DNA from: Candidatus Marinacidobacterales bacterium
GTDB taxonomy: Bacteria > Acidobacteriota > Vicinamibacteria > Marinacidobacterales > DATDRI01
Assembly: GCA_965226495.1 (NCBI GenBank)
Contig: OZ245365.1
Coordinates: 3,808,001-3,872,000 of the forward strand
Reading direction: 5' to 3'
Length of the DNA stretch: 64,000 bases
The position numbers were made by a program, and so were the translations under genes. The notes below the pieces were generated by a model. It made no database searches. It saw only the letters and a program-made list of their open reading frames with translations, and was not told the origin of the DNA. Positions 1 through 60,891 of the stretch are shown here, piece by piece (position 1 is the first letter of the stretch; every line of letters starts with the position of its first letter).

Positions 1-13
1 AGAAGACCTTCTA

Positions 14-478
14 ATGACTGAACTTGATGGAATTCGCGATCAACTGCGAAGGGCCTTTCGGGGCGACGCATGGCACGGACAATCCCTTCAAGAGCTACTG
101 GAAGGGGTTAGCGCTCGACGGGCAATGTCCCGTCCCATCACGAACGGGCACACGATTTGGGAGCTCGTGCTCCACATCACGGCCTGGACCGATATCCCTC
201 GCCGTCGGATGGAGGGAGATCCCGTCGCCGATCCGTCGGTTGAACAAGACTGGCCTCCGGTGACCGCTTCCGATGAGCCTAAGTGGCAGGCAACGATCCA
301 AAAACTCCAGCTTGCTCACGACCAGCTCCAAGAGGCGCTGGCCCGCTTCCCCGGGACCCGACTCTCCGAGATCGTTCCTGGCCGGAATCACTCTTTCTTT
401 GTGATGTTGCACGGGGTCGTCCAGCATGGGTTGTACCATGCCGGCCAGATTGCTATGCTTAAGAAGGCAAAGGCATAG
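14..478 (+). CDS. DinB/DUF664 family protein
   Basis: 154 aa; AWHG near the N-terminus, 'HTIWELVLHI' and C-terminal 'QHGLYHAGQI' His triad typical of the DinB four-helix fold. Confidence 0.85.
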   Translation: MTELDGIRDQLRRAFRGDAWHGQSLQELLEGVSARRAMSRPITNGHTIWELVLHITAWTDIPRRRMEGDPVADPSVEQDWPPVTASDEPKWQATIQKLQLAHDQLQEALARFPGTRLSEIVPGRNHSFFVMLHGVVQHGLYHAGQIAMLKKAKA

Positions 479-490
479 CTCGCTTTTGAC

Positions 491-589
491 TTGGACGCCC
501 GCCGCTAAGGCTCACGACATAACCGCAAAGCGACGAAAAAACTGCGCGCGGGTCGGACTGCGCGTTGCCGGTGGCGACTGGGCGTCCGG
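491..589 (+). promoter_or_regulatory. Structured 5' leader of guaB-like gene (candidate cis-regulatory RNA)
   Basis: ttggacgccc 491-500 pairs with gggcgtccgg 580-589; nested gccgct/ggtggc, ggc/gcc, cgac/gtcg, ccgc/gcgg; closes at the purine-rich RBS. Confidence 0.3.
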
Positions 590-606
590 AGGAAGGAGAC
601 ATCGCA

Positions 607-2046
607 ATGACCACCGAACTGAAGAAGGGGCTCACCTTCGACGATGTCCTCATCGAACCGCGTCGCTCCCGGGTGAGAAGTCGCAAGGAGGTGGAGACGC
701 GCACTCAGTTCTCTCGCCACATCGATCTCAATGTCCCCATCGTCAGTGCCAACATGGAAACGGTGACCGAGGCGGACATGGCCATCGCCGTCGCGAGGGA
801 CGGCGGCATCGGCGTGATCCACCGTTTCATGCCCATCGCCGAAGAAGTCGAGCAAGTCGCGCGCGTCAAGCGATCGGAGAACCTGGTCATCGAGCACCCG
901 TACACGATATCCCCGCAGCAACGCTTGGCAGAAGCTCGTGAGATCATGGAGGCTCGAGGCGTCACTTCGTTGCTCGTGACGACCGAGGCCGGCAACCTCG
1001 CCGGAATCCTCACCCATCGCGACATCCTTTTCGTCGAGGAAGACTCGCGGCTCGTCTCGGACCTGATGACACCTGCGGCCAAGGTTGTCACTACACATGC
1101 AAGGGTGACCGTGGATGAAGCAAAGAAACTCTTTCTCGAACACAAAGTCGAGAAGTTTCCGATCGTCGACGACAAGGGTCGCCTACTCGGTCTCATTACT
1201 ATCGCCGACATCATCAAACGCGCCCGTTACCCGATGTCGACCAAGGATGCCAAGGGACGCCTTCGCGTCGCCGCTGCGGTGGGAGTACGCGCGGATTACC
1301 TCGAAAGGGCCCAGGCACTCGCCGATTCGGGAGTCGACGCACTGGTCGTCGACGTAGCGCACGGTCACTCCGATCAAGCGATCGACGTAGCAGAACAAAT
1401 CCGGAAGAAGCTTGGCGACATCGAGCTCGTCGTCGGGAACGTCGCCACCGCACGAGCGGTTCGTGATCTCATCGGGCTCGATGTGGATGCGATCAAAGTT
1501 GGAATAGGGCCGGGCTCGATCTGTGTGACCCGAATCGTCACCGGCTCGGGCGTTCCGCAGTTCTCGGCAGTTCAGGAATGTTCTCGCGAGGCGAACAAGC
1601 GTGGCGTCCCCATCATCGCCGACGGAGGCATCAGAAGCTCGGGCGACCTCACCAAAGCGATTGCCGCCGGTGCCTCGAGCGCCATGCTCGGCAGCATGTT
1701 GGCCGGCACAGAAGAGAGCCCTGGAGTCATGGTGATGCGCGGCGGACTCCGACACAAGGTCTGCTGGGGTAGTGCATCCTTTCGCGCTCAATGGGCGGGG
1801 CGAGGAGATTCACAACAGGATCCCGAGGAGCTTGCGGAAGTCGTGCCCGAAGGAGTCGAAGCGGTGGTTCCTTACAAAGGTCTCGTCTCCGAGGTAATCC
1901 ACCAACTGGTGGGAGGACTACGCTCGGGAATCAGTTATGCAGGGGGAAGGAACATCAAAGAGCTTCGAGAGAATGCTTCCTTCATTCAAGTCACTCCGGC
2001 GGGACTGAAAGAGGGACACACCCACGACGTCGAGCTGATTAAGTAA
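607..2046 (+). CDS. guaB: IMP dehydrogenase/GMP reductase family enzyme with CBS pair
   Basis: [25 protein letters not shown] domains, catalytic loop [19 protein letters not shown]; ATG 607 after ggaaggag RBS; YRGMGS and flap RY motifs are not canonical. Confidence 0.8.
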
Positions 2047-2050
2047 CCAA

Positions 2051-2207
2051 CGGGCCAGAGGCCCGTCGGCCGCGAGGAATTGCCGAAGTAGAATGCGGAG
2101 GGCAAGGGAAGCGGCCGGGTTTTCGGCGCGAGCACAGCCCTGCGCCGATGCGCAGTCGCCAAGTCGACGAAGCATCGAGGCTTGGGGGTGGGGCCCCAAG
2201 CCATTGA
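2051..2207 (+). repeat. Structured intergenic repeat, copy A (full length)
   Basis: Aligns with 44447-44598 and with the reverse complement of 28900-28980; ends in ggcttgggg-gtgggg-ccccaagcc hairpin. Confidence 0.9.
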
Positions 2208-2219
2208 TCCATTCCCGCA

Positions 2220-2690
2220 CTAGCTGCCTTCGGCCTGCTCCAGCTGGGGAATCAGTATCTCGAGCACCCGGGAGTGGCCGGGCGCCAGCACCAACGCTCG
2301 CTCATAAGCGGCTCGCGCTTCTCCCAGCTCTCCTTTTTGAGCCAGGACGAACCCGAGCCAAGTCTGAACCTCTACCCTCCCCCAATTTGGCCAGGGTTGG
2401 TCCGGTGGTTGCTTCTCGAAAAGTGCCTCCGCGCGGCGAAGCTCGGAAAGCGCTTTGTCGTTGCCGCCGCCGAAAAAACGCGGCTTGTAGAAACTCGCTA
2501 CCGCCCGGTTCAGAACGACTCTCGGGTTTTCCGGTGCCAATTTGGCGGCTCGGCCAAGTGCACCCTGCGCTTTGCGCCCCAGCGTGAGTTTTCCCCAGAC
2601 GTTTGCGATTTGGCCACCATAACTTGCTCGCAGAGTAGCGCAAGCGCTCGCCGAGCGACTGTGAGGAAATCCACAACTTTCCTCAGCCCG
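2220..2690 (-). pseudogene. 5'-truncated TPR protein remnant
   Basis: C-terminal TPR-like sequence (LAPENPRV...FGGG...WGRVE...EARAAYERALVLAP); no credible start between it and the fabB/F stop; the N-terminal part appears to change frame near 2630. Confidence 0.55.
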
Positions 2691-2694
2691 CGCT

Positions 2695-3927
2695 CTAGGG
2701 CGCGGCGAGGACCAGAGCAGCGTTCGTTCCGCCGAACCCAAACGAATTCGAAAGCGCCAGCCGAAGTTTCCGCGAGGTGGGAACCAGGACCGGAGGATAA
2801 TCCTCGAACTCGGGATCGAGTGGCTCCGCATTCACCGACGGAGCGATCCACCCTTCTCGAAGCATGGCAAGGGTGAAGATGGCTTCGATGGTGCCGGCGG
2901 CAGAGACGGGGTGCCCGGTGTAGCCTTTGGTGGACGAATAAGGCAGGCGTCGACCGTCAAAGATCTTGCGCATCGCTCGCACCTCGGCCGTGTCACCCAG
3001 GGGCGTGGACGTCGCGTGCGTGTTGATATAATCGATCTCCTCGGGAGCCACACCGGCATGTTCGAGCGCTCGCCGCATCGCGAGCACAGCACCGTCCGCC
3101 GAGGGCGCCACCATCTCGCGCGAACCGTCCGACGACATGCCGTACCCCCGTAGGACACCGAGGATGGGCGCGCCACGTCGCGTCGCGGACTCTCGTGTCT
3201 CGAGAACAACCAGGCCCGCGCCCTCGGAGAAAATGAAACCGGCTCGATCGGCGGCGTAGGGGCGCGATGCGCGCTCTGGGTGGTCGTTATCCTGACCGTT
3301 GTATGCGCGCATCGAGTCGAAACCGGCAAAGAAGTGAATATCGGCTACCTCCACACCGCCTGCGATAGCGCTTTCGACCCGACCTTGCTCGATGAGCTCG
3401 GCTGCAAGTAGAACGTTATAGGCTCCGCCCGCGCAGGCGGCGGTCGCGGAAAAGGAAGGGCCAGTAGTGCCCAGGAACATTGCCAGGTTCGCCGAGACCG
3501 TTGAAGCCATCAAACGTGGAATGATCGTCGGCGACACTCTTTTCGCATTCTTGGTCTTCGCGAGCTTGTTGTGGATCTCCACATGCGCGTCCACGTCGCC
3601 GGTCCCGCTTCCTACTACGACAGCTAGCTCGCCGCGCTCGACCCCGGATTGCTCGAGCGCAATCTGTGCGGCACGGGCCGCCATGAGAGCCGCCCTTCCC
3701 ATGAAGCGCGCCTGCTGCTTGTTGATCCCGAGGCTCGCGGGAGAAAGGTCGTTCGGGTACACCCCGATCAATTGGCATCGGGCACCGTATTCGACCGCCG
3801 GCGGCCAACGCGTAAACGGCGTCGCCCTTCCCTCTCGTAGCGCAGCTTCTATAGCCGGCAAGTCGTCGCCCATATGACAGCAGACGCCTCCCCCGGTAAT
3901 CACGACTTCACGCGATGGGTCTCTCAT
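2695..3927 (-). CDS. Beta-ketoacyl-ACP synthase (FabB/FabF family)
   Basis: VVITG start, catalytic Cys in TAACAGG, His in INTHATST and KGYTGH, C-terminal SNSFGFGGTN. Confidence 0.93.
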   Translation of the reverse strand: MRDPSREVVITGGGVCCHMGDDLPAIEAALREGRATPFTRWPPAVEYGARCQLIGVYPNDLSPASLGINKQQARFMGRAALMAARAAQIALEQSGVERGELAVVVGSGTGDVDAHVEIHNKLAKTKNAKRVSPTIIPRLMASTVSANLAMFLGTTGPSFSATAACAGGAYNVLLAAELIEQGRVESAIAGGVEVADIHFFAGFDSMRAYNGQDNDHPERASRPYAADRAGFIFSEGAGLVVLETRESATRRGAPILGVLRGYGMSSDGSREMVAPSADGAVLAMRRALEHAGVAPEEIDYINTHATSTPLGDTAEVRAMRKIFDGRRLPYSSTKGYTGHPVSAAGTIEAIFTLAMLREGWIAPSVNAEPLDPEFEDYPPVLVPTSRKLRLALSNSFGFGGTNAALVLAAP

Positions 3928-4005
3928 CTCTTTCTACATCCCAACTGGGCACAACTGCGACACGAAAACCCGTTGAAGCTAATAGGGAGCTTGGCGAAGT
4001 CCGGT

Positions 4006-5145
4006 CTACGGCTCGATGCTAATCGGAACCACTTGATAGTCCACAGCGGCAGCGAAGACTGCGGTTCCGACGGTGATCGAGTGAACTCCCTGTAGTCCGT
4101 TGCTAGGGGTAACGGTGACCAAACCGGTGTCGAAATCAACCGTGTAGTCGAGATCCGCATGCGCTCTAGCCGGCACCGGAAGTCCGTTGGAATCGAGTTC
4201 GGTCTCGTCGAGAAAGAACGCTGCGTCTCCCTCCACATCGATCGCCCTCAGTTGCAAGGTCACCGGTGTATCGACTTTGGTCGAAACAGGAGGGATATCC
4301 GCCAGAAACGGATTGCTGTCCTCCGTGTCCGGTGAGACAGTCACCAGAAAAGCCCGACTAACCTGGGCTCCATCCGAGCTGGTCGCGGTGGCCGTGACGG
4401 TGGCTTGACCGCTCGTCCCCTCGGTCGCCGCGAGCATGAGGACAGCGTTCTGATTGTCCTTGAAGATCCGCACGGATTGCATGACGACATCCGTGATGGG
4501 ACGATCACCGGTGCCGACGGGAACGAAGCTGATCGCGTCCCGCACGTCTTCGCCCTCCACCAACAAACCAAAGATCGAATGGTTGAAATCGAGGTGCCGT
4601 GGGGCTCCTTCGGTAATGAAAAACTGCGAGTCGTTCGTGTCGTCGTCCGTTTTCGCCATCGAGAGGAGCCCGGTTCGGTTGTGCTGCAGATCGACGTGGA
4701 ACTGATCGTCGAAAGGACCCAGCGTCGAGCCGCCGGTACCGATTCCGGTGGGGTCACCGCCCTGGATGATGAAGTTATCGATCACACGATGAAAAATAAG
4801 ACCATTGTAGAAGCCGCTCTCGGCCAACCTGGTGATCTGGCGAGTCGCCCGAGGCGCCCGCTTCTCAAAAAGCTCGAAAACCATATCGCCGAAGCCCGCC
4901 ACGTTGATCCTCATGCTACGGTTCCCCTTGGTGACGGAGGTAGAAACGAGCTCACTATTGCTGGTGGCGGTGAAAGACAATGCCTGACCGCTCGGCTCAA
5001 ACCCGTCGAGCGGAATATGGAGAGGCGAGCCAGATAGCAGTGTGACGTCGGCGATGGGCTGGAGAGACGGAGCCTGGGCGGAGGCGAGTGCCGCGGTGCC
5101 GAATACAAACGCAAGTAATACCAAGTGTTGGAATTGTGTCTTCAT
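4006..5145 (-). CDS. Secreted cyclophilin-type peptidyl-prolyl isomerase with flanking beta-sandwich domains
   Basis: Signal peptide from MKTQFQ; FYNGLIFHRVIDNFIIQGGDP, LSMAK, SQFFIT, HLDFNHSIFG. Confidence 0.88.
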   Translation of the reverse strand: MKTQFQHLVLLAFVFGTAALASAQAPSLQPIADVTLLSGSPLHIPLDGFEPSGQALSFTATSNSELVSTSVTKGNRSMRINVAGFGDMVFELFEKRAPRATRQITRLAESGFYNGLIFHRVIDNFIIQGGDPTGIGTGGSTLGPFDDQFHVDLQHNRTGLLSMAKTDDDTNDSQFFITEGAPRHLDFNHSIFGLLVEGEDVRDAISFVPVGTGDRPITDVVMQSVRIFKDNQNAVLMLAATEGTSGQATVTATATSSDGAQVSRAFLVTVSPDTEDSNPFLADIPPVSTKVDTPVTLQLRAIDVEGDAAFFLDETELDSNGLPVPARAHADLDYTVDFDTGLVTVTPSNGLQGVHSITVGTAVFAAAVDYQVVPISIEP

Positions 5146-5394
5146 TGGTGTGTCTTTCCCTAGTCCTGAGCGGCGGTATCGGCCGCGGCCGTCAACGAAG
5201 TATAGCACTTACCACTAACTGACTATTTTGTAGCGGATTACGGCAAGAATCGCAAGCGCCTTGCCTCCCGAATGAAGTGTTCTAACCTGATCGACGCTGT
5301 CGGTCAAGCAGAATTCCTACCACTCTTCTACTCGACACACGCGCCGACTGGTGATAAAAGGGCATTTCACTTTCCAACCGGAGGAGACGAAATC

Positions 5395-6111
5395 ATGCGC
5401 AATTTAATCTTTTTCATAACTCTTGTTTCATTCGTGGGCTGCCAGCCGGCAGAGGAAGCTGCGTCGGACGCGGCAACGGAAGAAGCAGCCCCGGCCACCG
5501 ATTCCACGGACCCGACGGTGTCCGAGCCCAACAATTACAAGGTCGTGTTCGAGAACGATCGCGTGCGAGCGGTGCGAATCACGTACGCCGCCGGCGAAGA
5601 AACCGGAATGCACTCGCATCCCGCGTCGGTTTCGGTCTTTCTGACGGACGCCGAAGGCGTACTTGCCATGGAGGACGGGAGTGAACAGGAGTTCAACAGC
5701 AAGGCCGGAGACTCGATGTGGATGGACGCGCAGAGCCACCAGCCGAAAGCCAAGACGGACTTCGAGCTGATCCAGATCGAGCTCAAAGGCAGCGGGTCCG
5801 GAGCCGACGATGCGTCCGGAGAGTCGATGGATGCGACCGTTGTGGAGCCCAATCACTACAGGACGGTTTTGGAAAACGACAACGTGCGAGTCGTCAAGAT
5901 TACCTATGCCGCTAACGATGAGGCGGCTCTTCACTCACATCCGAACGCGGTCTTGGTTTCTCTGTCCGACGGCGAGTCGGAGCTTATCCTGGAGGACGGG
6001 ACGAAACGGGAGGCCAACTTCAAGGCCGGTAGTGCGGTGTGGGCCCCGGCGGAGACTCATCATGGGAAGGCCCATACAGCGTTGGACATGATCTTGGTCG
6101 AGCTCAAGTAA
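5395..6111 (+). CDS. Lipoprotein with two tandem cupin domains
   Basis: GGAGGAG RBS, lipobox FVGC, two ENDxVRvvrItY...HSHP repeats. Confidence 0.75.
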   Translation: MRNLIFFITLVSFVGCQPAEEAASDAATEEAAPATDSTDPTVSEPNNYKVVFENDRVRAVRITYAAGEETGMHSHPASVSVFLTDAEGVLAMEDGSEQEFNSKAGDSMWMDAQSHQPKAKTDFELIQIELKGSGSGADDASGESMDATVVEPNHYRTVLENDNVRVVKITYAANDEAALHSHPNAVLVSLSDGESELILEDGTKREANFKAGSAVWAPAETHHGKAHTALDMILVELK

Positions 6112-6128
6112 CGAAGTCTGTTCTTTCT

Positions 6129-6156
6129 GGGAGAGGAGCTAGGCAGCTCCTCTCCC
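6129..6156. terminator. Perfect 12-bp hairpin between convergent genes
   Basis: gggagaggagct-aggc-agctcctctccc; no clear U-tract on either strand. Confidence 0.55.
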
Positions 6157-7668
6157 TCACTCTGCGACGCAATAACCACCGTTTTTCTCCTCGACTCGTC
6201 CCTCTTCTTGCAGCTTGATGAGCCCCGAGGTTAGCGAGCGACCCGCCATCTCCCACATTTTCTTATCCACGTCGATGTAGACCTTGCTCACCAGCTCCTC
6301 GACAGATTGCGGCTCACTGGAAAGCGCGGCCAACAGTTGATTCTCCCTTTGCTGACGGTGACGAAGCTGCGCCCGAATCGCCTTTCTTCCTTCGCGGGTG
6401 GGAGGCCCGTGTCCCGGATAGACGGTCCCCTGCGCCACCGACTCCAAAAACTCGAGAGATTCCAAATAGGTCGCGAGGTGACCGTCGCTGGGATCGATCA
6501 AGATGGAGGACAGCGTCGACAGCAGATCTCCTACGATCAGTGTTTGGTAGCGACTCTCTTGAAACGCGAGATGGCCCGGCGCATGCCCCGGCACGTGATA
6601 GGCGCGGAGCTTCCACCCCGGTTTCCCGTCGGGCGTGCTCCCCAAATCGAGGTCCTGTCCGTGTTCCACGGGATCTCCGAAGTCGAAGCCGTCGAGCTCT
6701 GCCATCGTGTCTCGATGCGCACGCACTGGAAGCTGGTAACGACGCTGACACTCCGCGACCGCCCCCACGTGGTCCGGGTGGTAGTGGGTTAGAAGAATCG
6801 CCTTCAAAGTCCGACCCTCGGCAATGAGCTCATCGAGAAGGTTCCACAGCTTCAACTGCTCGGTTGGATCCACCGGAGCAGGATCCACGATGTATACCTT
6901 ATCCTCCCCCACCAAGCACGTATTGGTGTGTGTGGCGGGCGGCTTGGTCGGGGTCTTGAGCGCGGCGAGGAGAACTCCCGGCGTGAAGTAGACATGATGA
7001 AGCTTCCCTTCGTCGTAGGACGTGAATAGCTGCATCCAATTCACGAAGTCCTTCTTGGTAGAATTCGCGAGGCGCTGGAGGAAGATGATCACCGGTGGCA
7101 CGATGAGCGCCTCGCCCGCTCGCCACTCGGCCAAGGCGTCCTTGGGCTTCGCGAAACCGCCGCCCACGAGCTCGCCGTCTATGATCTCCACCGTCGCAGA
7201 TTCGGGGAGCTGACAGCCCAGAAACCACGTGTCGTAGCGACGCGGCGTAAAAGGCGGCGTGGTGATGCGGCACAACGGCGTGAAGTCTGTCGCATCCAGC
7301 CGTTGGGCGCGCCAGGTCAGGAGCTCGAGAAACGTCACGTCGCCGGCCAACATGAGACGCCGATCCTCTTCGAGGGAGCGGCCGGATTCGTCGACTCCCC
7401 GACCCAACCAAACGCCGGTCTCCTCGAAGAGCTCTCGCGCTGCGGCCGCCACGAAGGTGGGAAAGTCTTCTCCAAGAGGCTGGCTACTACGCTCCGCCAA
7501 CCGGTCCAGGTTGTCGATGGGCACGGCAGCATCCTCCGGTTCGAGCGTCCCACCCGGAAAAGCCTGATAGCCTCCGAAGAAGGACAGCTTGGGATTCCGG
7601 TCCACCAACAGAACGTCTTCCCAGTTGTCGGTGCGACTCAACAAGATGCTGACAGCGATGCGGTTCAT
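6157..7668 (-). CDS. NUDIX hydrolase fused to MBL-fold metallo-hydrolase (LACTB2-like)
   Basis: FPGG...AAARELFEETGV Nudix box, RRYDTWF; THYHPDHVG, PGHAPGH, GD, YPGHG MBL motifs; winged-helix-like C-terminus. Confidence 0.88.
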   Translation of the reverse strand: MNRIAVSILLSRTDNWEDVLLVDRNPKLSFFGGYQAFPGGTLEPEDAAVPIDNLDRLAERSSQPLGEDFPTFVAAAARELFEETGVWLGRGVDESGRSLEEDRRLMLAGDVTFLELLTWRAQRLDATDFTPLCRITTPPFTPRRYDTWFLGCQLPESATVEIIDGELVGGGFAKPKDALAEWRAGEALIVPPVIIFLQRLANSTKKDFVNWMQLFTSYDEGKLHHVYFTPGVLLAALKTPTKPPATHTNTCLVGEDKVYIVDPAPVDPTEQLKLWNLLDELIAEGRTLKAILLTHYHPDHVGAVAECQRRYQLPVRAHRDTMAELDGFDFGDPVEHGQDLDLGSTPDGKPGWKLRAYHVPGHAPGHLAFQESRYQTLIVGDLLSTLSSILIDPSDGHLATYLESLEFLESVAQGTVYPGHGPPTREGRKAIRAQLRHRQQRENQLLAALSSEPQSVEELVSKVYIDVDKKMWEMAGRSLTSGLIKLQEEGRVEEKNGGYCVAE

Positions 7669-7723
7669 GGACCGCTATAATACAGCGAGCGCGCGAAACC
7701 GCGCCACGAAAGGAAACGTCACG

Positions 7724-9289
7724 ATGATTGCGCTCAAGAGTTATGCAGCCGGTGAATGGAAGTCGGGTAGCGGGAAGGGACGTGTCCTGCAGCACGCGGT
7801 CACCGGGGAAGATATCGCGACTTGTAGCAGTGAGGGCCTCGATTTCGCGGCCATGCTCGATTGGTCTCGCACCAAGGGTGGTCTGGCTCTCCGTGCCTTG
7901 ACCTTCCACGAGCGCGCGGGACTTCTCAAGAAAATGGCTGGCACTCTCAACGAGCACCTCGATGAATTTCATCAGATCGCCGCGGCCTACGGAGCGACCG
8001 GGCCCGACGCGATGATGGACGTGGAAGGGGGCATCGGAACACTCGCTTACTACGCGGGCCTCGGTTCCAAAAAACTTCCACCGAGCACCTTCCTGACCGA
8101 CGGCGCCCCGGCCCGACTTTCTAAACCGGGGAACTTCGTGGGACGGCACATCTATGTGCCACTCGAAGGAGTGGCCGTCCAAATCAATGCCTACAACTTC
8201 CCCTCTTGGGGCATGCTGGAGAAGGTGGCGCCATCGATCCTTGCCGGCATGCCGAGCATCGTCAAGCCGGCGACGCCGACCGCTTGGCTCGCCTTCCGCA
8301 TGGTCGAAGTGCTTATCGAGTCCGGAGTCATGCCAGAGGGAACGCTACAGCTCATTTGCGGATCGGTAGGCGATCTCCTCGATCACCTGACGTGCCAGGA
8401 CGTCGTTTCCTTTACCGGCTCTGCATCCACCGGTCAAAAGATCCGCTCGAATACCAACATAGTGAAAAACGCCGTGCGGGTGAATATCGAAGCCGATTCG
8501 CTGAACTGCATCGTCTTGGGGCCCGATGTGTCGGAGGGATCCTCGACGCTCGACTATTTCACCAAGGAAGTCGTCAAGGAGATGACCATCAAGGCTGGAC
8601 AGAAGTGCACCGCGATCCGCCGACTCGTCGTGCCCAAGGATAAGGAGTCGGTGGTCATCGACGCTCTGAAGGAACGTCTAGCGAAGATCCGCGTGGGCGA
8701 TCCAGGAGTAGACGGAGTACGCATGGGGCCGCTCGTTGACCGTTCGGCACTCGAATCCGCCCGCGAAGGCGTCGAGAGCTTGAGCCGCGAAGCCGACGTC
8801 GTCTTCGGAGATCCGAATCGCGCTCGCTTCGAGGGAACGGGCACCGAAAACGGATTTTTCATGGAGCCGGTCCTACTTCACGCGAATAAGCCGGAAGATG
8901 CCCGACTCGTTCATGAAGTCGAGGTTTTCGGCCCGGTGGCGACCGTGCTCGGTTACGAAGACGTCGAGCAAGCGATTCGCCTCGCTCGGCGCGGCGGAGG
9001 CAGCTTAGTCGGTTCGGTCTACAGTGAGGACGAGGAATTCGTTCACAAGATGACTTTCGGCCTCGCTCCGTATCACGGTCGTCTCATGGTCATGAACGCG
9101 AAGGCGGCCCCGGAATCAACCGGACATGGTGTCGTCATGCCTCATTTGGTGCACGGTGGCCCCGGGCGTGCGGGGGGTGGAGAGGAACTGGGGGGACTGA
9201 GGAGCGTCTACCATTACATGCAGCGCATCGCGCTGCAGGGGGATCCGGAGAGACTGGAGAGACTCTGCGCACCGGCGGTCATGGAGTAA
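7724..9289 (+). CDS. PaaZ-N/BoxD-like acyl-CoA semialdehyde dehydrogenase (no MaoC domain)
   Basis: LTFHERA, INAYNFP, FTGSASTG, EADSLN, KAGQKCTAIRR, HEVEVFGP, HGGPGRAGGGEELGG. Confidence 0.87.
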   Translation: MIALKSYAAGEWKSGSGKGRVLQHAVTGEDIATCSSEGLDFAAMLDWSRTKGGLALRALTFHERAGLLKKMAGTLNEHLDEFHQIAAAYGATGPDAMMDVEGGIGTLAYYAGLGSKKLPPSTFLTDGAPARLSKPGNFVGRHIYVPLEGVAVQINAYNFPSWGMLEKVAPSILAGMPSIVKPATPTAWLAFRMVEVLIESGVMPEGTLQLICGSVGDLLDHLTCQDVVSFTGSASTGQKIRSNTNIVKNAVRVNIEADSLNCIVLGPDVSEGSSTLDYFTKEVVKEMTIKAGQKCTAIRRLVVPKDKESVVIDALKERLAKIRVGDPGVDGVRMGPLVDRSALESAREGVESLSREADVVFGDPNRARFEGTGTENGFFMEPVLLHANKPEDARLVHEVEVFGPVATVLGYEDVEQAIRLARRGGGSLVGSVYSEDEEFVHKMTFGLAPYHGRLMVMNAKAAPESTGHGVVMPHLVHGGPGRAGGGEELGGLRSVYHYMQRIALQGDPERLERLCAPAVME

Positions 9290-9367
9290 AACAATGAAGC
9301 TGCCTTCCTTCGACTATTCTTGGGCCGACGACGCTATAGCATGCTCGCGCGTCGTCGCTCGATTGCA

Positions 9368-9406
9368 CCCTCTCCCCGTTTGCGGGGAGAGGGATGGGGT
9401 GAGGGG
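9368..9406. repeat. REP-like palindrome (CCCTCTCCC...GGGAGAGGG...GGGGTGAGGGG type)
   Basis: ccctctccccg-tttg-cggggagaggg followed by atggggtgagggg; a single copy in the window. Confidence 0.7.
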
Positions 9407-9433
9407 TCCTGCATCCCGAGACCGCCACAGCCC

Positions 9434-11874
9434 ATGAAGAAGAAACTCGGCGGTTACGAAGTCATCGAGCTTATAGGCTCTGGCGGAATGGGCGAAGTCT
9501 ACCGCGCCCGGGACACCAAGCTCGGTCGTGAAGTCGCCATCAAAGTCCTGCCTGACGCCTTCGCACAAAACGCAGACCGTCTAGCCCGCTTCGAGCGGGA
9601 GGCGCGGGTTCTTGCTTCGCTCAATCACGCCAACATCGCCACGCTATACGGGTTCGAGCATGCAAACGGCATTCATTTCCTTGCTATGGAACTGGCCGAT
9701 GGCGAAACGCTCGCCGAACGACTCCGGCGCGGCCCGATCTAATCGAGGATGCCCTTCCCATGTTCAAGCAGATCGCGGAAGGACTGGAAGCGGCTCACGA
9801 AAAAGGGATCGTCCACCGCGATCTGAAACCGGCGAACATCAAAGTCAGCCCCGAGGGCAAAGTCAAAGTACTCGACTTCGGGCTCGCCAAGGCGATGAGC
9901 GGGGACCCTGAGCGGAGTGAAATCTCGGAGTCACCAACGATCACCAGGGATGCGACGGCGACTGGGGTGATCCTGGGTACGGCAGCCTACATGAGCCCCG
10001 AGCAAGCCCGCGGGAAGCCCCTCGACAAACGGACCGATATATGGGCGTTCGGTTGTGTTCTTTATGAAGCGTTGACCGGCCGCGCGGCCTTCCTGGGGGA
10101 AACGGTCTCCGACACGATCGCCAAGATTCTTCAAACGGAGCCCAATTGGGAGGCTCTTCCGCCGATACCTGCTGCAGCTCAAAGATTGCTTCGGCGATGC
10201 CTTCAAAAAGACGCGGGACGACGTCTGCACGATATGGCGGATGCGAGGTTCGAGATTGAGGATGCGCTCGCAAGCCCTCGATCCGAAAGCGCACCTACTG
10301 AGGCCGAGGGGCGCCCATTTGGAAGCGCACCGTACCCTTGGTACTGGCTTCAATCGCCGTGGCAGCTGTCCTATGGATGTTCTTAGCGCGCCCGGAACCG
10401 CGCGAGCGAGGGTTAGCGCATGTGGCGATCCCGATGACCGGTCAGTTGGAAGAGCGGGGTAGCAGCGCGCAGCTTGATATTTCGCCGGACGGGAACTGGG
10501 TTGGCTTCTTTCATGAGGGATGGCTCAAGAAAGTCCATTTGCACGGCGGGCCGCCGGTCACTATCTGCGCTTTAGGTCCTGGCCCCGAAATAGGCGGGGG
10601 AAGCTGGGGGACGGATGGCAGCATCTATTTCTCCGTCGCCGATAGAATCCAAAAAGTGCGCGCGGTTGGAGGCCAGCCGGAGACCGTGGCCAAACCCGAC
10701 GAAGGGAAGGGAGAGTTCATGCTCCACCTGCCGGAGATCCTTCCCGGGAACCAAGCCGTTCTTCTTACACTGGGTGACGAAGACGTTCTTTCGAGTGGTA
10801 GCTGCGATGATTGCAAGATCGTGCTCTTGTCCCTCGAGACCGGTGAGCGCAAGGTGGTTATTCGAGGCGCGGCGGGCGCTCGTTAGGGATCCGGACACAT
10901 CCTGTACGTGCGGGGGGGCGCCTTGTACGCGGTGCCTTTTGATGAGGTCAATCATGAAGTCGCGGGTCACCAAGCGGTCCTGCTCGAGCGCGTCAGTTAT
11001 TTTCCGAGCGCTAGCTCTTCCCACTTCGCCGTGTCCCGCGAAGGCACGTTGGCCTATTTCTTGGGCGGGACCGTAGGCGAAGCACCTAGGTCCCTCGCTT
11101 GGGTCCAAAGAGACGGGGAAGCCGTTCCCTTGGGAGAAGACCGCCTCGCCTACCGAGGCGTCGCCCTCTCCCCTGATGGGCAACGCCTGGTTTTGCAGAT
11201 CCGGCGCAGGGGGAATATGGATCTACGAGCTTTCTCGCGGCACATTGACCCGACTGACTCAGACCGGCGGCGATGAGGACCGCCCGATTTGGGCAGGGAG
11301 TGGGACCCACTTGACGTATGCCTATGCCCTTTTGAGACCCATCCCGATTCTTCAGATACCGGCGGACGGAAGCGGAGAAGCGGAGAAGGGGAGATGCTTT
11401 CGAAAGGAGACTTCAATCGGTGGCCCATGTCCTGGTCTCCCGATGGCAAGAAGCTGGTCTTTGGGGAGCAACATCCCGAGACCGGATGGGACCTATGGGT
11501 GCTTACGCTGGGAGCGGACCAAGAGAGACCGCTTCTCGACTCTCCGTATGACGTCGCAACCGTTTCCAGGGCCGGGCCCGCGCGTGCAGATATCGACCAA
11601 TGGTGGCGAGGCGCCGGTCTGGGCGCGAAGTGGTGGAGAGCTTTTCTACCAACAGGAAGACAAGATGATGGCCGTCGACATCGCGACGGGACCAGCTTTC
11701 CGGCCAGGCGCACCTCGGGTGTTATTCGAAGGCAACTACTTGCCGTTTTACGATGTCACCCCCGATGGTCAGTTCGTGATGATCGAGCGGCCGGAAGTAC
11801 AGCCGTTCATCCAGATCCACCTGGTCTTCAATTGGCTCGAAGAGCTCAAGAAAGAAAATTTAAATTTCTCTTGA
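9434..11874 (+). pseudogene. Ser/Thr protein kinase with TolB/WD40-like propeller, fragmented
   Basis: GSGGMGEVY, VAIK, HRDLKPAN, DFGLAK, YMSPEQ and SPDG repeats split over about 6 ORFs; frameshift near 9740, in-frame TAG 10884-10886, further frameshifts and apparent deletions. Confidence 0.9.
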
Positions 11875-12067
11875 CAAGAATCCGCAGCACGTTTTGGTTT
11901 CGTTGCTGATCGCTTCCTGTTGCCATCTCGCACGCATGCGTTGACGCTCTAGTCAACTCCCAGAAGCTTCGAGACAAAAACTTCGTCGAAGCAGGTTCGT
12001 TCCAACTCGTGTCGTCCCAAGGCTCAAAAAAGTGCGTTGTTATATCAGTGTTGAGGAGGGACGACCC

Positions 12068-13108
12068 ATGTATAACAAGTTACTGAAATCGATTTCGGAT
12101 GATGAATTGCTCCATCGTTTGTCGGGGCTCGTACACAAATCCCGACGCGTCGAGTCGGAATTGGTCGCACATATTGCCGAGGTGGACGAGCGGCGCCTCT
12201 ACGCACGGGAAGCTTGCTCCTCCATGTTTACCTATTGCACCGAGCTGTTGCATATGTCGGAGGCGGAGGCCTATCTCCGAATCCGAGTCGCGCGCGCATC
12301 GCGAAAACACCCAGAGCTCCTGACGATGCTCGAGGACGGGCGTATTCATTTGACCGGTGCCGCCAAGCTTTCGCCTCATCTCACTGAGGCGAATCGGGAC
12401 ACCGTTTTGCCGCGCGCGGCGCATAAGTCCAAGGCAAAGATCGAAGAGCTCGTGGCTGAGGTTGCGCCGAAACCTGATGTTGCGCCCAAGATACGCAAGC
12501 TCCCTGCGCCCGCCCAACTGTGTCCGGACACAGTTGTGTTACCAAAGGTTACGTCGCCAAGGCCAGTGGAGCCGCTCGCCCCTGCCCGTTTCAAGGTGCA
12601 ATTTACGGCGAGTGAAGAGCTGCGTGCCAAGCTGGGGCGCCTCAAAGCTCTCATGCCAGGCAATGATTTAGCTGCCATTATCGACGAAGCGGTGACCGAG
12701 AAACTCGAGCGGTTGGAGTCGAGGCGCTACGGTAAGACGCGGGCGCCGAGACGCGATCTCGATAGCACCGATACATCGCCGTCGTCACGCTATATCCCGG
12801 CCGCGGTGAGGCGTGCCGTTAGCGCGCGGGACGGAAATCAGTGCACCTTCGTGGACGAGGGGGGGAAGCGCTGTGGCGAACGCTCCCAACTCCAGTTTCA
12901 CCATAAGGACCCCTACGCCCGAGGCGGAGATCACCTCCCAGATAACATCCAAATGATGTGTCCGACTCACAACCAGTATCTAGCTGAGTGCGACTACGGC
13001 AAGGATTTCATGAAACGACGAGCCTCAATCAGCCGCGTCCGGGAGCCGGGGCCGGTCTACTCATCGCGAGTCGGCGTCAATCGAGCCAGCCGTGCACTCG
13101 GTCCATGA
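12068..13108 (+). CDS. HNH endonuclease with DUF222-like N-terminal region
   Basis: AHIAEVDERRLY...SSMFTYC...SEAEAYLRI N-terminus; RYIPAAVRRAV-RDGNQC...C...FHHKDPYARGG...DNIQMMCPTHN; GAGGAGG RBS. Confidence 0.88.
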   Translation: MYNKLLKSISDDELLHRLSGLVHKSRRVESELVAHIAEVDERRLYAREACSSMFTYCTELLHMSEAEAYLRIRVARASRKHPELLTMLEDGRIHLTGAAKLSPHLTEANRDTVLPRAAHKSKAKIEELVAEVAPKPDVAPKIRKLPAPAQLCPDTVVLPKVTSPRPVEPLAPARFKVQFTASEELRAKLGRLKALMPGNDLAAIIDEAVTEKLERLESRRYGKTRAPRRDLDSTDTSPSSRYIPAAVRRAVSARDGNQCTFVDEGGKRCGERSQLQFHHKDPYARGGDHLPDNIQMMCPTHNQYLAECDYGKDFMKRRASISRVREPGPVYSSRVGVNRASRALGP

Positions 13109-27949: not shown

Positions 27950-28892
27950 ATGAGCAAGAATTTGGCCCCGCCTTGCCTCTGGTTTTGATCGGGGCACTCA
28001 TCGCACTTCCTGCAGTAACCGCCGGCACAGCCTGTAAAGAAAGTACAGAACGTACGGAAAGTCGAACTGCTCAATCGGGCCAAGGCGCCATACAGGCCCA
28101 GCTGCAACAGACTGGCGACTCCACCGCCGATTTCTACCGGCAAGTACTAAACGAGATCGTCAGCGCCGAGCTTCTTCACCAGCCTGCGCTGCGCGTGGCT
28201 ATCTCCCGCCGAAAGAGGAGGTGGACGGTCAGATCGCGCAGTTTCGTACTCGTTTCCCGAATCCGGGAGAGTTCGAAACGGCGCTGGGTGCACAGGGAAT
28301 GACCGCCGAGGGCTTCGCACACATGCTCGCTCTGGAGGCAGGTATGAAGAAACTTGTTGAGGCGGAGATTCTAGCCTCGATCAAGATAAGCGAGACCGCG
28401 AAATAGGAGTTTTACAGCGAAAACACCGACAAGATGAAGTCGCCGGAACAACTTCGTTTGAGTCACATTCTAGTGAAGGCCTCACCGGGTGACCCTGCCA
28501 CTGGCCGCGAAGTGGCGCGAAAGAAAACGGAAGACCTGAAGGCCCGTCTCGATGCCGGGGAGGACTTCGCTTCCTTGGCGGGCCAGAATTCCGACGATCC
28601 GGGGTCGAAAGCAAACGGCGGCGAGCTACCCTGGGTCTCGCGGGGAGACACCGTCCCCGCTTTCGAGCAAGCTGCGTTTGCCCTTAGTCCGGGAGAAACG
28701 AGCGAAATCGTCGAGACTCCGTTCGGATACCACATCATCAAGCTCGCCGAGCGCAAGCCCAGCCAGGCCTTGCCTTACGACGATGTGGTGGGTCGCATCG
28801 AGGAGTTCCTGACGCAGCAGGCCGTCCAAGAGCAGATCAAGAATCGAGTCGAGGTTCTGAAGTCCGAAGCTCAGGTCGAGATTTTTATCTAG
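27950..28892 (+). pseudogene. PpiC/PrsA-type parvulin foldase, disrupted
   Basis: SHILV, GEDFASLA...SDDPGS...GGEL, FEQAAFAL, ETPFGYHII intact; in-frame TAG 28404-28406 and frameshift near 28190 upstream. Confidence 0.8.
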
Positions 28893-28899
28893 TCATCGA

Positions 28900-28980
28900 T
28901 GAATGGCGCGGGGCCCCACCCCCACGCCTCATGCTTCGTCGACTGCGCGACTGCGCATGGGCTCAAGGCTGTGTTCACGC
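28900..28980 (-). repeat. Structured intergenic repeat, copy C (3' half only)
   Basis: Reverse complement reads gcgtgaacacagcc...catgcgcagtcg...cgacgaagcatgaggcgtgggggtggggccccgcgcc. Confidence 0.9.
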
Positions 28981-29147
28981 ACTTGGCGTCTAGTCACGGG
29001 CACTGCTGGAGCTTGGTTTTCTTCGTGTTGACACTCGGCAGGGACTGAGACACAATTTCGCGACGCTATCCTTTCCTTCGTTTTCGAGCCGCGTTCGTGA
29101 CTCCGTTGACAGATTGAAAGGCCCCGGTTTCCACACAAGAAGGACGC

Positions 29148-31283
29148 ATGAAAGCCAAGTTGACCAACAAGGAAGTCAGCTGGCTTTCGTTCAACGCCAG
29201 AGTGCTTCAAGAAGCGGCCGATCCCAGCGTCCCACTCCTCGAGCGTCTGAAGTTCCTGGGTATTTTTTCCTCGAACATGGACGAGTTCTTTCGCGTTCGT
29301 GTGGCAACGCTTCGCCGCCTTTCCGACATCGGGAAGAAATTCAAGAAAATCGTTGGGCATGATCCGAAGAAAATCCTCAAGAGGATCGGAGAAATATCGG
29401 TCGCCCAGTACAAGCTGTTCGATTCTGTTTACGAGGAGATCCTCAGAGGGCTGGCGAAAGAGAGGATCTTCATCATTGACGAGAAACAACTCACCACCGA
29501 GCAGGGAGAGTTCGTCACATCCTATTTTCGGCGCGAGGTTCGTCCCCACCTCATGCCGATCATGCTAGACCAAACCTCCACTTTCCCTAATTTGCGCGAC
29601 GACGCCATCTATCTCGCGATTTGCTTCCCCAAGGACCAAAAGACGTCGAAGAACCGATACGCCCTGATCGAAGTCCCCAGCAAGGGAGTTTCCCGGTTCT
29701 TGTTGCTTCCGCCGATCGACGGAGCTCAATACATCGTCTTACTCGACGACATCGTCCGCTACTGCCTGCCGGATATCTTCTCCCTGTTCTCTTTGTCCGG
29801 TGTCCCGAACTTCGAGGCCTACACGGTGAAGGTGACTCGCGACGCGGAGCTCGACATAGACAACGATCTCACGGAAAGCTACGCGAGGAAGGTATCCAAG
29901 AGCGTCAAGCAAAGGAAACAGGGTAATCCGGTTCGGTTCGTCTACGATGCGAACATATCCGAACCACTCCTCGAGTTCTTGACCAAGAAACTTCGGCTCA
30001 CCAAGGACGACACTCGAATACCCGGCTCGAAGTATCACAACTTCGAAGACTTCGTGAACTTCCCCAAGGTCGGGTCAAGCAGTTTGCGATACGAGCCCAG
30101 AATCCCTGTTCCCGTGAAACGCCTCGAACCGGGGAAAAGCGTCCTCGCCGCCATTGCCAAGAACGACATTTTGCTCCACTTCGCGTACCAGTCGTTCGAC
30201 CACGTCCTCGCTTTGCTAAGAGAAGCCGCCATCGACCCCAATGTGACCTCTATCAAGATCTCCCTGTACCGCATTGCGCGGGACTCCGGTGTGGTGAGCG
30301 CCCTCATCAATGCCGTTCGCAACGGTAAGAAAGTCACGGCGGTGGTAGAGCTTCAGGCTCGGTTCGACGAAGAGGCTAACATCCTCCTCTCCACCAAACT
30401 TCAGGAGGAGGGGGTGCGAGTCATCTCTGGCGTACCTGGATTGAAGGTTCACGGAAAGTTGTGCCTCATCGCAAGGAAACAGAAACGTTCACAAGTCCTC
30501 TATGCATGTCTCGGCACGGGAAACTTCAACGAAGATACCAGTTCCATCTACGGCGATCACTGCTTGCTCACTTCGGACGAGCGATTGACCAAGGAGGTCG
30601 CCTCGGTGTTCGACTTTTTCGAGAACAAGTATCGGTTCGGTGATTACAAGCACCTCCTGGTTTCCCCTTTCAACGCGCGGAAGAAATTCGCCAAGCTGAT
30701 CCGAACCGAGATCCGAAATGCTCGGAAGGGCAAGGAATCGTACATCATCGCAAAACTGAACAACCTGGCGGATCCGGAGATCATACGGCTGCTCTATCAG
30801 GCCAGCGGCGCGGGCGTCAAAGTGCAATTGAACGTAAGAGGCATGTTCTCTCTGGTGCCCGGAATCCCTGGGCTCAGTGAGAATATCGAGGCGATAGGCA
30901 TTGTCGATCGATTCTTAGAACACTCTCGCATGATGGTGTTCTGTAATGGCGGATCCCCGAAATACTTTCTATCCTCCACCGATTGGATGACGAGAAACCT
31001 GGATGGACGCGTCGAAGTCACGTTTCCCATCTACGATGCGTCGCTTCAAGAAGAGATTCGATCTTTCTTGGACATTCAGTGGAAGGACAACGTGAAGGCG
31101 AGGCTCCTCGACGAAAAACTGAGCAACACGTACCGCGAGGCTACCTCACCAGGAAGAATCCGCGCCCAGGTCGACTTCTATGACTTACTGATGAATCTCT
31201 ACCGAGAAGAAGAAAGAAAGCCCGGCCAGCCCAGCCCGCTGAGTAAGCTCGCCCAGTTCCCCCGCACGGCGTCATCCTCCTGA
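29148..31283 (+). CDS. ppk1: Polyphosphate kinase 1
   Basis: SWLSFNARVL, SSNMDEFFRVRV, ELQARFDEEAN, KVHGK, GTGNFN, DRFLEHSR, RNLDGRVE. Confidence 0.97.
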   Translation: MKAKLTNKEVSWLSFNARVLQEAADPSVPLLERLKFLGIFSSNMDEFFRVRVATLRRLSDIGKKFKKIVGHDPKKILKRIGEISVAQYKLFDSVYEEILRGLAKERIFIIDEKQLTTEQGEFVTSYFRREVRPHLMPIMLDQTSTFPNLRDDAIYLAICFPKDQKTSKNRYALIEVPSKGVSRFLLLPPIDGAQYIVLLDDIVRYCLPDIFSLFSLSGVPNFEAYTVKVTRDAELDIDNDLTESYARKVSKSVKQRKQGNPVRFVYDANISEPLLEFLTKKLRLTKDDTRIPGSKYHNFEDFVNFPKVGSSSLRYEPRIPVPVKRLEPGKSVLAAIAKNDILLHFAYQSFDHVLALLREAAIDPNVTSIKISLYRIARDSGVVSALINAVRNGKKVTAVVELQARFDEEANILLSTKLQEEGVRVISGVPGLKVHGKLCLIARKQKRSQVLYACLGTGNFNEDTSSIYGDHCLLTSDERLTKEVASVFDFFENKYRFGDYKHLLVSPFNARKKFAKLIRTEIRNARKGKESYIIAKLNNLADPEIIRLLYQASGAGVKVQLNVRGMFSLVPGIPGLSENIEAIGIVDRFLEHSRMMVFCNGGSPKYFLSSTDWMTRNLDGRVEVTFPIYDASLQEEIRSFLDIQWKDNVKARLLDEKLSNTYREATSPGRIRAQVDFYDLLMNLYREEERKPGQPSPLSKLAQFPRTASSS

Positions 31284-31296
31284 GTGGGCAGCGTTC

Positions 31297-32928: not shown

Positions 32929-33018
32929 AAGCCTCCCTTCTGCCGCTTCGCCGCACGTCCGCCCCGAAAAGCAATAGCCAAGCAAGCCAAGCGTTAGCCG
33001 GTATCTCGACGTAACGCA

Positions 33019-33831: not shown

Positions 33832-33875
33832 TTGCCGTTACAATTCTAGCAGTAGTTTCGAATGTCGAGCCGACA

Positions 33876-35375: not shown

Positions 35376-35407
35376 GCGCCCGCTTAGCGCCAAGGACTAC
35401 TGCTTTC

Positions 35408-44446: not shown

Positions 44447-44598
44447 CGGGCCGGAGGCCCGCCGGCCGGGAGGAATCGCGCCGTTAGGCGCGAGGGAACC
44501 CGGCCGTGGTTTTTGGGCGCGAGCACAGCCTTGAGCCATTGCGGAGTCGCTTGCCGACGAAGCATGAGGCGTGGGGGGTGGGGCCCCGACGCCACTAA
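44447..44598 (+). repeat. Structured intergenic repeat, copy B (full length)
   Basis: Colinear with copy A (2051-2207) with compensatory stem changes. Confidence 0.9.
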
Positions 44599-44612
44599 TT
44601 TCGCTAGCTGCC

Positions 44613-59411: not shown

Positions 59412-59418
59412 CAGACTA

Positions 59419-60807: not shown

Positions 60808-60891
60808 TCAAGCCGTGCGCCTAAAGCGCCGTCTGGCGAGCCAGCTAGCGGCAACCCCGTAATTCGACGGCGAACGTGTGGCGTCCGATGG

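Follow-up and report, generated by a model that had tools for sequence, protein, structure and literature searches.

We have analysed 64,000 nt of a Candidatus Marinacidobacterales bacterium (GenBank assembly GCA_965226495.1, contig OZ245365.1, positions 3,808,001–3,872,000 of the forward strand; this whole stretch is called the window, and its first nucleotide is position 1) and find that it carries exactly three copies, A and B on the + strand and C on the − strand, of an intergenic multi-hairpin repeat. The evidence set out below makes it probable that these copies belong to a lineage-restricted family of non-coding, modular, structured intergenic repeats of the Vicinamibacteria (Acidobacteriota), carried in mRNA and read by a trans-acting factor. 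Objects of this kind are already known: structured, modular, dispersed intergenic repeats occur in other phyla. Our best reading is that the element represents a new family of this known kind, to be placed beside the REP/BIME, SPRITE and bcr1-like repeats; the TIRYT-associated repeats of Acidobacteria (PMC3733652) could be compared with it by description only.

The unit common to the three copies is a core of ~90 nt, to which a further ~75 nt is added on the 5′ side in A and B (three-way alignment); the dispersed element proposed in a first-pass annotation of the window, at ~150 nt, is longer than this shared unit. The core has four parts: an unpaired stretch (SAGCC-NU-SAGCY), a hairpin (domain 3) whose 5-bp and 4-bp stems are separated by a symmetric purine loop, 5′-GNA / 5′-GRA, and capped by a 6-nt closing loop, a G+C-rich terminal hairpin of 9 bp, and an A/U-rich tail (AYUNAU). 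Two modules are optional on the 5′ side, namely hairpin 1, which directly follows a stop codon, and domain 2, with its GAGGAA/GGGAA loops. Copy A (2051–2210, + strand) has both: hairpin 1 (2051–2065; CGGGCC-AGA-GGCCCG) begins 4 nt 3′ of the TAA of the IMP dehydrogenase gene, and domain 2 (2067–2117; CGGCCGC-GAGGAA-TTGCC..GGCAA-GGGAA-GCGGCCG) consists of two stacked stems about the internal loop GAGGAA/GGGAA and is followed directly by GGTTTTCGG (2118–2126). The core of this copy, placed by a covariance model at 2123–2211 with 95.0 bits, comprises the conserved unpaired stretch GAGCACAGCCCTGCGCC (2130–2146), domain 3 (2147–2176; GATGC-GCA-GTCG-CCAAGT-CGAC-GAA-GCATC), the terminal hairpin GGCTTGGGG-GTGGGG-CCCCAAGCC (2179–2202) and the A/T-rich tail ATTGATCC (2203–2210), all on the + strand. 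Copy B (44447–44601, + strand) shows the same order, with hairpin 1 (44447–44461; CGGGCC-GGA-GGCCCG) lying 11 nt 3′ of the TAA of an Nramp-like gene, then domain 2 (44462–44506; CCGGCCGGG-AGGAA-TCGCGCC-GTTA-GGCGCGA-GGGAA-CCCGGCCG) and TGGTTTTTGGG, and finally a core (44514–44602, 81.6 bits) in which domain 3 is at 44540–44564, the terminal hairpin at 44568–44593 and the tail is ACTAATTT. Copy C (28896–28988, − strand; 101.3 bits) has neither hairpin 1 nor domain 2 and is the 3′ core only (~90 nt), from the unpaired stretch onwards, with domain 3 at 28930–28959 and the terminal hairpin at 28905–28928. The motifs quoted in the first-pass annotation were all found at their places in the three copies, and the 4 nt and 11 nt just given, together with the convergent orientation of both downstream genes, agree with its placing of A and B within ~12 nt of a stop codon between convergent genes. 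On their 3′ side A and B share an 11-mer, CRCTAGCTGCC (CACTAGCTGCC at 2218–2228 and its counterpart CGCTAGCTGCC at 44602–44612, both + strand), which lies against the stop codon of the convergent gene or includes it; in copy A it holds that of a TPR gene (2220–2222, − strand).

Several measures place the three copies above chance. They are the only long dispersed repeat that a repeat search of the 64 kb returned; two conserved blocks are each present in all three, with 4 matches per search vs ~0.8 in shuffled sequence; and the covariance model, run without filters, scores the copies at 81.6–101.3 bits, the next match in the window having an E value of 2.1. Fold z-scores against dinucleotide shuffles are −3.15 for A and −3.54 for B, and weaker (−1.68) for C.

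Relatives came from a scan of 185,579 species genomes with the exact pattern CGACGAAGCA-N(4–14)-GGGGTGGGGCC, which gave 14 loci. Nine of these are true members, from three metagenome-assembled genomes (MAGs) of Vicinamibacteria: a Vicinamibacteria bacterium (loci L001, L005 and L009), a Candidatus Marinacidobacterales bacterium (L003, L004, L010, L011 and L014) and a second Candidatus Marinacidobacterales bacterium (L006), Marinacidobacterales being an order within the class. The other five, hosted by Actinomycetes, Dehalococcoidia, Brachybacterium, Acidimicrobiia and an uncultured bacterium, have nothing in common beyond the pattern, give a model E value of at least 1.1 or no match, and were set aside as chance hits. 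A model (R1) built from the nine cores (alignment A2) and searched over the window and all loci (268 kb) added four diverged copies that are independent of the pattern, two in L010 and two in L014, which brings the total to 16 copies in four genomes and 196 kb, 13 of them outside the window; a second model (R2), built from all 16 and run over the window and loci with filters off, found no further copy. Extrapolation from the four unselected copies in ~100 kb of one genome suggests ~100 or more copies per genome, with a very wide error. Among ten canonical cores, mean identity is 0.76 for the 13 pairs from the same genome and 0.75 for the 32 pairs from different genomes, where the conservation and the between-genome value are inflated by the 21 of ~89 core positions that the search pattern fixed, and the unselected copies are much more diverged than the pattern-selected ones. 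Considered against the protein identity of Ppk1 between the window genome and one carrier genome (62%), the identity of the cores points to constraint on sequence rather than to a recent burst of copying.

The fold is kept through compensatory change. In a model-fitted alignment of the 16 copies standard pairs make up 94.6% of the 261 cells, and both partners vary at 8 of the 17 pairs; none of 500 shuffles reaches any of five measures, and pairing falls to 32–55% when the 3′ partners are slid by 1–3 columns. Because a fitted alignment leans towards its own structure, the count was repeated on a plain MAFFT alignment, in which 88.3% of 273 cells pair (29–55% in the slid controls), 7 of the 18 pairs have changes in both partners (a count attained by 5 of 500 shuffles) and the covariation score is 0.212 vs 0.093 (reached in 0 of 500 shuffles). 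These controls are indicative and are not a probability, the set being a small sample of 16 related sequences in which relatedness alone can beat shuffles. It is the diverged copies that carry the signal. Canonical copies have GAUGC/GCAUC or CAUGC/GCAUG as the outer stem of domain 3, where diverged ones have GUUCC/GGGAC, GCCGC/GCGGC or, with one mismatch, GUCGC/GGGAC; the inner stem occurs as GUCG/CGAC, GCCG/CGGC and GGCG/CGCC, and hairpin 1 as CGGGCC/GGCCCG and CGGCCC/GGGCCG. Throughout, the symmetric loop 5′-GNA / 5′-GRA is constant in all copies and the closing loop stays at 5–6 nt. The GTGGGG loop of the terminal hairpin, called invariant in the first-pass annotation, is nearly so: 13 of the 16 copies keep it, and the exceptions are a G-only loop, a duplicated loop and an absent hairpin (one each). 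That annotation would have given up its structured element had covariation failed in a larger alignment; in 16 copies the paired positions are kept by compensatory changes above both the shuffled and the slid controls, in the fitted as well as in the MAFFT alignment, as is characteristic of a structured RNA or single-stranded DNA.

Its further proposal was that selection acts on a single-stranded form more complex than a simple REP, either a repetitive RNA motif or a non-autonomous mobile unit; a single-stranded form is in keeping with an asymmetry between the strands. G-U cells number 11 vs 2 A-C cells across the 16 copies, 10 of the 11 being U-G and nine falling at one column pair; in 14 of 16 cores it is the sense strand that folds with the lower free energy (means −37.1 vs −32.9 kcal/mol; nominal Wilcoxon p 0.002), and the unpaired positions are purine-rich on that strand. 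Together, the G-U excess, the energies and the purines fit a single-stranded sense form, and they do not distinguish RNA from DNA.

The family is modular as well as structured. The core occurs alone in C, L003, L004 and L010, and behind hairpin 1 and domain 2 in A and B; in two copies in L014, where domain 2 is missing, hairpin 1 runs straight into a variant linker (GAGCC-NU-CAGC) and domain 3. An insertion of ~72 nt occupies the tip of domain 3 in L001 and L005. A module of ~85 nt (GAATTATCCSGGG..CTTCGAAGTGATA..CCTTCGAAG..GCGGACGATTCG), 86% identical between two MAGs, is nested in domain 2 in L009 (2296–2376) and joined to a truncated core in L014 (9923–10002), and several Marinacidobacterales copies have a short one (GAGGAGYGAGG..GACTRAT.TGAAG) behind the terminal hairpin. 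In L010 two copies stand in tandem. Core boundaries vary together with the modules, the long forms measuring 160–220 nt, and the variation in order, number and nesting of modules makes the family a BIME-like mosaic. A second, unrelated hairpin repeat of the form GCCGYC-RAATTACGKGGTTGCC...GCTAGCCAGRCGGC (family Y) often adjoins the element in the loci. The window has one copy of it at approximately 60825–60875 (− strand), between the convergent rhomboid (59176–60807) and trkH (60892–62340) genes, and others are at ~9875–9925 in L003, at ~10070–10250 in L004 (three copies, after the core) and at ~14048–14104 in L010; family Y modules also lie between tandem copies in L010 and L004.

Such nesting and clustering, as in BIMEs, favour an alternative in which the selected form is single-stranded DNA. 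The element would then be a REP-like substrate of a single-copy HUH tyrosine transposase (RAYT/TIRYT type) encoded elsewhere, which would recognise the fold together with its conserved unpaired bases, cut the element and copy it; effects on RNA, if any, would be a by-product. We judge this to be a real possibility, if not a likely one. The strand-specific fold with conserved unpaired bases is what such an enzyme would need; the antisense copies (C and L003) are conserved as well as the sense copies; terminal inverted repeats and regular target-site duplications are missing, as they are for REPs; identity within genomes is about that between genomes, as expected if a conserved enzyme defines the sequence; and, in the part of PMC3733652 that deals with them, RAYT-like ‘TIRYT’ genes specific to Acidobacteria are described, some of them flanked by members of a repeat family. 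However, no RAYT or other Y1/HUH transposase gene was detected among the 53 open reading frames (ORFs) of the window or the 106 of the loci (22 + 84), 196 kb of four genomes in all. In the same 196 kb no transposase or nuclease is associated with a copy, and no RAYT, HUH or HNH gene flanked by copies, for which the first-pass annotation had advised looking, was seen there. The HNH gene of the window (ORF 12032–13108, + strand; 358 aa, motif near the C-terminus, 21 bits to the HNH part of IscB against a cut-off of 175) was rejected as a partner, being 10–16 kb from the nearest copies and adjoining none. The element is, moreover, far larger and more complex than REPs of 20–40 nt, and the repeat motif reported for TIRYT, GGGGWSAS, is matched at only 7 of 8 positions by GGGGTGGG.

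REP/BIME elements are nevertheless what the element most resembles. In the passages of PMC3184786 and PMC3733652 that bear on them, they appear as multi-copy, G+C-rich hairpins of intergenic regions that usually lie downstream of a gene, at times provide its stop codon, form mosaic clusters without terminal inverted repeats or target-site duplications, have reported effects on mRNA stability and are linked to RAYT. On that description the element resembles them in its many G+C-rich intergenic hairpins and their position relative to genes and stop codons, its mosaic clusters, its lack of inverted repeats and duplications and its plausible transcription. It differs in that a REP unit is a single palindrome of 20–40 nt with a GTAG or CGTC end tag (as PMC3733652 gives it in the portion used here) and often tied to RAYT, whereas the element is a multi-hairpin structure of ~90–165 nt with purine internal loops, the ~90-nt core alone containing two separate hairpins and a conserved unpaired linker. 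No tag is consistently placed at a hairpin foot: GTAG is seen only in the domain 3 loop of some copies (such as L003), where A and C have GCAG.

Miniature inverted-repeat transposable elements (MITEs) such as Correia/NEMIS, ERIC and RUP are likewise non-coding, 100–170 nt long, intergenic and foldable, and are co-transcribed with their neighbours, but terminal inverted repeats and target-site duplications, the features that define MITEs, are not regular here. Neither the core nor the long form has complementary ends, and the only inverted repeats in the window are whole copies on opposite strands. A flanking direct repeat was found at just 2 of the 16 copies (8 bp at C, 10 bp at L001); ~0.1 such case is expected by chance among 16, and both repeats overlap tail-like sequence of other copies. 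That of copy C, TGACTAGA, is at 28888–28895 and 28989–28996 (− strand); the former interval holds the stop codon of the ppiC gene, and a copy in L010 (14142–14235) has TGACTGAG at the same 3′ place, so that TGACTAGA is either a target-site duplication or the tail of the element. Genes of IS256 type (Transposase_mut) are present in three of the six 20-kb Marinacidobacterales loci (L006 18190–20002, L010 4210–5418 and L011 3564–5769), with an IS3-type integrase also in L011; derivation of the element as a MITE from IS256- or IS3-type elements was rejected, since it has no similarity to their flanks (word size 7, E up to 1). With the defining features of both REPs and MITEs missing, we file the element as a new family of the general kind and a member of none of the families compared here.

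Two further families are close in habit, as far as the relevant passages of their sources describe them. SPRITE is a terminator-like repeat at the ends of convergent genes (PMC3184786, PMC3733652), and window copies A and B likewise fill gaps between convergent genes; unlike SPRITE, the element has no proper U-tract by the simple terminator rule, also lies inside an operon and upstream of genes, and belongs to another phylum with unrelated sequence. The bcr1 repeat of the Bacillus cereus group (PMC3184786) is ~155 nt long and transcribed, with a two-hairpin fold, compensatory changes and non-conserved sites. It is similar in size to the element and unrelated in sequence and host, and it is flanked by 5-bp direct repeats at each copy, whereas the element has an ambiguous flanking repeat at 1–2 of 16 copies.

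The placement of the copies is intergenic and not orthologous. The window is ordinary chromosome, with guaB, fatty-acid, polyphosphate, transport and kinase genes and no transposase. Copy A lies between guaB (the IMP dehydrogenase gene, 565–2046, + strand; Pfam IMPDH, E = 1e-137) and the convergent TPR gene, copy B between the Nramp-like gene (42954–44435, + strand) and a convergent BON-domain gene, and copies between convergent genes extend from stop codon to stop codon; copy C lies between a ppiC-type gene (28434–28892, + strand) and ppk1 (29148–31283, + strand), antisense to both. Flanking genes in the window and loci are all different, unrelated housekeeping genes, and an orthologous cis-element was rejected on this ground; no copy adjoins the L006 ortholog of ppk1 (62% identity over 703 residues), which likewise indicates that the copies are not orthologous cis-elements. 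None of the 16 copies interrupts a recognised protein domain. A small ORF was rejected as the conserved entity, the ORFs that cross copies (1918–2220, 2093–2587 and 28929–29549) being different and the copies differing by 1-nt indels.

In all five copies that carry it, hairpin 1 starts 0–11 nt after the stop codon of a co-oriented gene, a proximity that is uninformative on strand for the two convergent cases. Reportedly, an upstream gene of E. coli is expressed less when a REP lies within ~15 nt of its stop codon. In L001 and L005 the longest ORF on the upstream side extends into the element, which may therefore supply the last codons and the stop. In L014, positions 1–9714 (− strand) are a dcw cluster of cell-division and cell-wall genes (mraZ, rsmH, a PBP gene, murE, murF, mraY, murD and ftsW) whose murE–murF and murD–ftsW junctions are filled by sense copies, the remaining junctions being tight or overlapping. 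The terminal hairpin is mismatched in one of these copies and absent from the other. Strong termination can be excluded for the sense copies within this operon, which polycistronic RNA has to tolerate, and we count their sense orientation, with the terminal hairpin weakened or missing, in favour of carriage in mRNA.

The same contexts bear on the suggestion that the element functions in cis as an RNA module, with a putative binding site made up of the linker and the purine-rich internal loops, through which an RNA-binding protein would control a genome-wide post-transcriptional regulon; its copies would be kept by regulatory selection and not by selfish mobility. Sense copies within an essential operon and the constant position of hairpin 1 after stop codons would suit such a regulon, as would GNA/GRA, GAGGAA/GGGAA and SAGCC-NU-SAGCY, which are unpaired and conserved while the stems covary, and cores that are as alike across taxa of the class as within one genome. 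Against it, the flanking genes have no function in common, two canonical copies run antisense to the genes beside them, the mosaic, nested architecture looks like the product of insertion and recombination and not like a designed regulatory site, and no candidate protein was identified. On balance we think a regulon of this kind unlikely.

How the element might act can be outlined under our preferred reading, that of a repeat family carried in mRNA and read in trans. It would be carried as a 3′-untranslated or intercistronic structure, in which stable hairpins followed by A/U-rich single strands may help to form 3′ ends, whether by terminating transcription weakly or non-canonically, by blocking 3′ exonucleases or by marking a site for processing. 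The trans-acting factor could dock on the invariant unpaired purines and the linker and might also be the enzyme that copies the element, and new copies may arise by non-autonomous mobilisation or by recombination. Hairpin-plus-U-tract terminators are not enriched in the window (positions 1–60000: 15, 17 and 17 vs 20.0, 18.4 and 17.6 in shuffled sequence) and most lie inside genes; other structures must then define 3′ ends. Runs of T follow domain 2 in A (TTTT) and B (TTTTT), and the tail of the terminal hairpin is A/T-rich with 2–4 T. A repeated terminator motif, TRIT, is said to exist in Mycobacterium tuberculosis.

A number of observations weigh against this reading. Both transcription and the effect on RNA ends are matters that we infer, and none of A, B and C satisfies the terminator rule of at least 5 T in 8. 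Where the neighbours are co-directional, nine copies are sense and two antisense (C and L003), a bias that is not significant (two-sided binomial p ~0.065) and is drawn from copies that are not independent, some sharing a region; of the others, two lie between convergent genes, two between divergent genes and one at a contig end. C and L003, antisense to both neighbours, are among the best-conserved copies, which a DNA-level or selfish element would explain better than a function of the sense RNA. To these must be added points already met: the small, related set behind the covariation, the concentration of U-G cells at one column pair, the identities raised by the search pattern, the lack of an associated transposase or nuclease, and the want of terminal inverted repeats or a consistent target-site duplication.

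The first-pass annotation recognised no known family, and Rfam 15 concurs: at gathering score it has no match in the 64-kb window. In permissive scans copies A and B gave at best 5.9–15.3 bits against gathering scores of 40–82, and L001, L005 and L009 gave no match with E up to 1. Self-cleaving ribozymes, Acido-1, Acido-Lenti-1, HEARO/omega RNA and group II intron domains all fail to reach gathering. Acido-1 (RF01686) and Acido-Lenti-1 (RF01687) are structured motifs from Acidobacteria listed in Table 1 of Weinberg et al. 2010 (PMC2864571), the part of that paper on which we draw; they share the phylum, and neither was matched by any copy at any threshold tried. These results also bear on a further alternative, a self-cleaving ribozyme or a stand-alone small RNA gene in many copies. 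The multi-helix fold, the conserved unpaired purines beside helices and the copy number are compatible with it, but A, B and L001/L005/L009 match no Rfam family at E = 0.1 under permissive filters, the upstream sequence is different in every copy and holds no conserved promoter-like sequence, copies fill gene junctions in operons, and core boundaries and modules vary; we regard it as very improbable. No sigma-70 promoter was found inside A, B or C, one promoter-like site (29028–29056) lying outside copy C, and a sigma-54 or ECF promoter in the linker was dismissed by eye, the spacing and key bases not fitting. Domain 5 of group II introns has a consensus that resembles the linker and the start of domain 3 (GAGCCG.AUGCG); this identity was rejected, since the closing 3′ strand is absent in most copies and the Rfam intron models give no match.

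Other searches were negative. Copy A has no blastn match in plasmid and phage collections at the distant setting, and no tRNA, tmRNA or tandem array was found in the window or is relevant to the copies. In the literature we found no description of repeats in Acidobacteria or Vicinamibacteria that matches the element; four signature strings returned only unrelated primer matches to one 12-mer, and a term search of the main text of one 2026 bioRxiv preprint on intergenic elements gave no Acidobacteria or Vicinamibacteria there. Two features of the surrounding genes may be recorded. The ppk1 gene beside copy C opens a polyphosphate cluster (29148–36883) with genes for a CHAD-domain protein, a metallophosphatase (on the other strand), ppx/gppA and a two-domain ppk2. 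The adjacent ORFs 9320–9742 and 9760–10386 (+ strand) match Pkinase profile positions 1–91 and 104–253, together one Ser/Thr kinase domain, and could be a split or frameshifted kinase gene or reflect a sequencing error.

Finally, we tentatively put forward a more specific proposal, although we are doubtful that it will hold in full: the core may be what a lineage-specific trans-acting protein recognises. That protein, whether an RNA-binding regulator or a nuclease (a domesticated HUH enzyme or another), would read GNA/GRA together with SAGCC-NU-SAGCY at copies that number, very roughly, ~100 or more per genome and are under purifying selection. If this is true, the copies would act together across the genome to set mRNA 3′ ends and operon polarity in hosts that are largely without canonical terminators. 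The Vicinamibacteria are abundant in soil and sea, with few cultured members and almost no molecular genetics. For them the element is a conserved multi-copy marker of the lineage, and its alignment and model can be used in annotating intergenic space, where without a model it is liable to be mistaken for RNA genes or spurious ORFs. It also offers a handle on how transcripts end or are processed in genomes that are high in G+C and poor in terminators, and is possibly the footprint of a mobilising or binding protein. More generally, it shows that mosaics of REP/BIME type with RNA-like covariation are not confined to the Proteobacteria and Firmicutes, in which they were defined.

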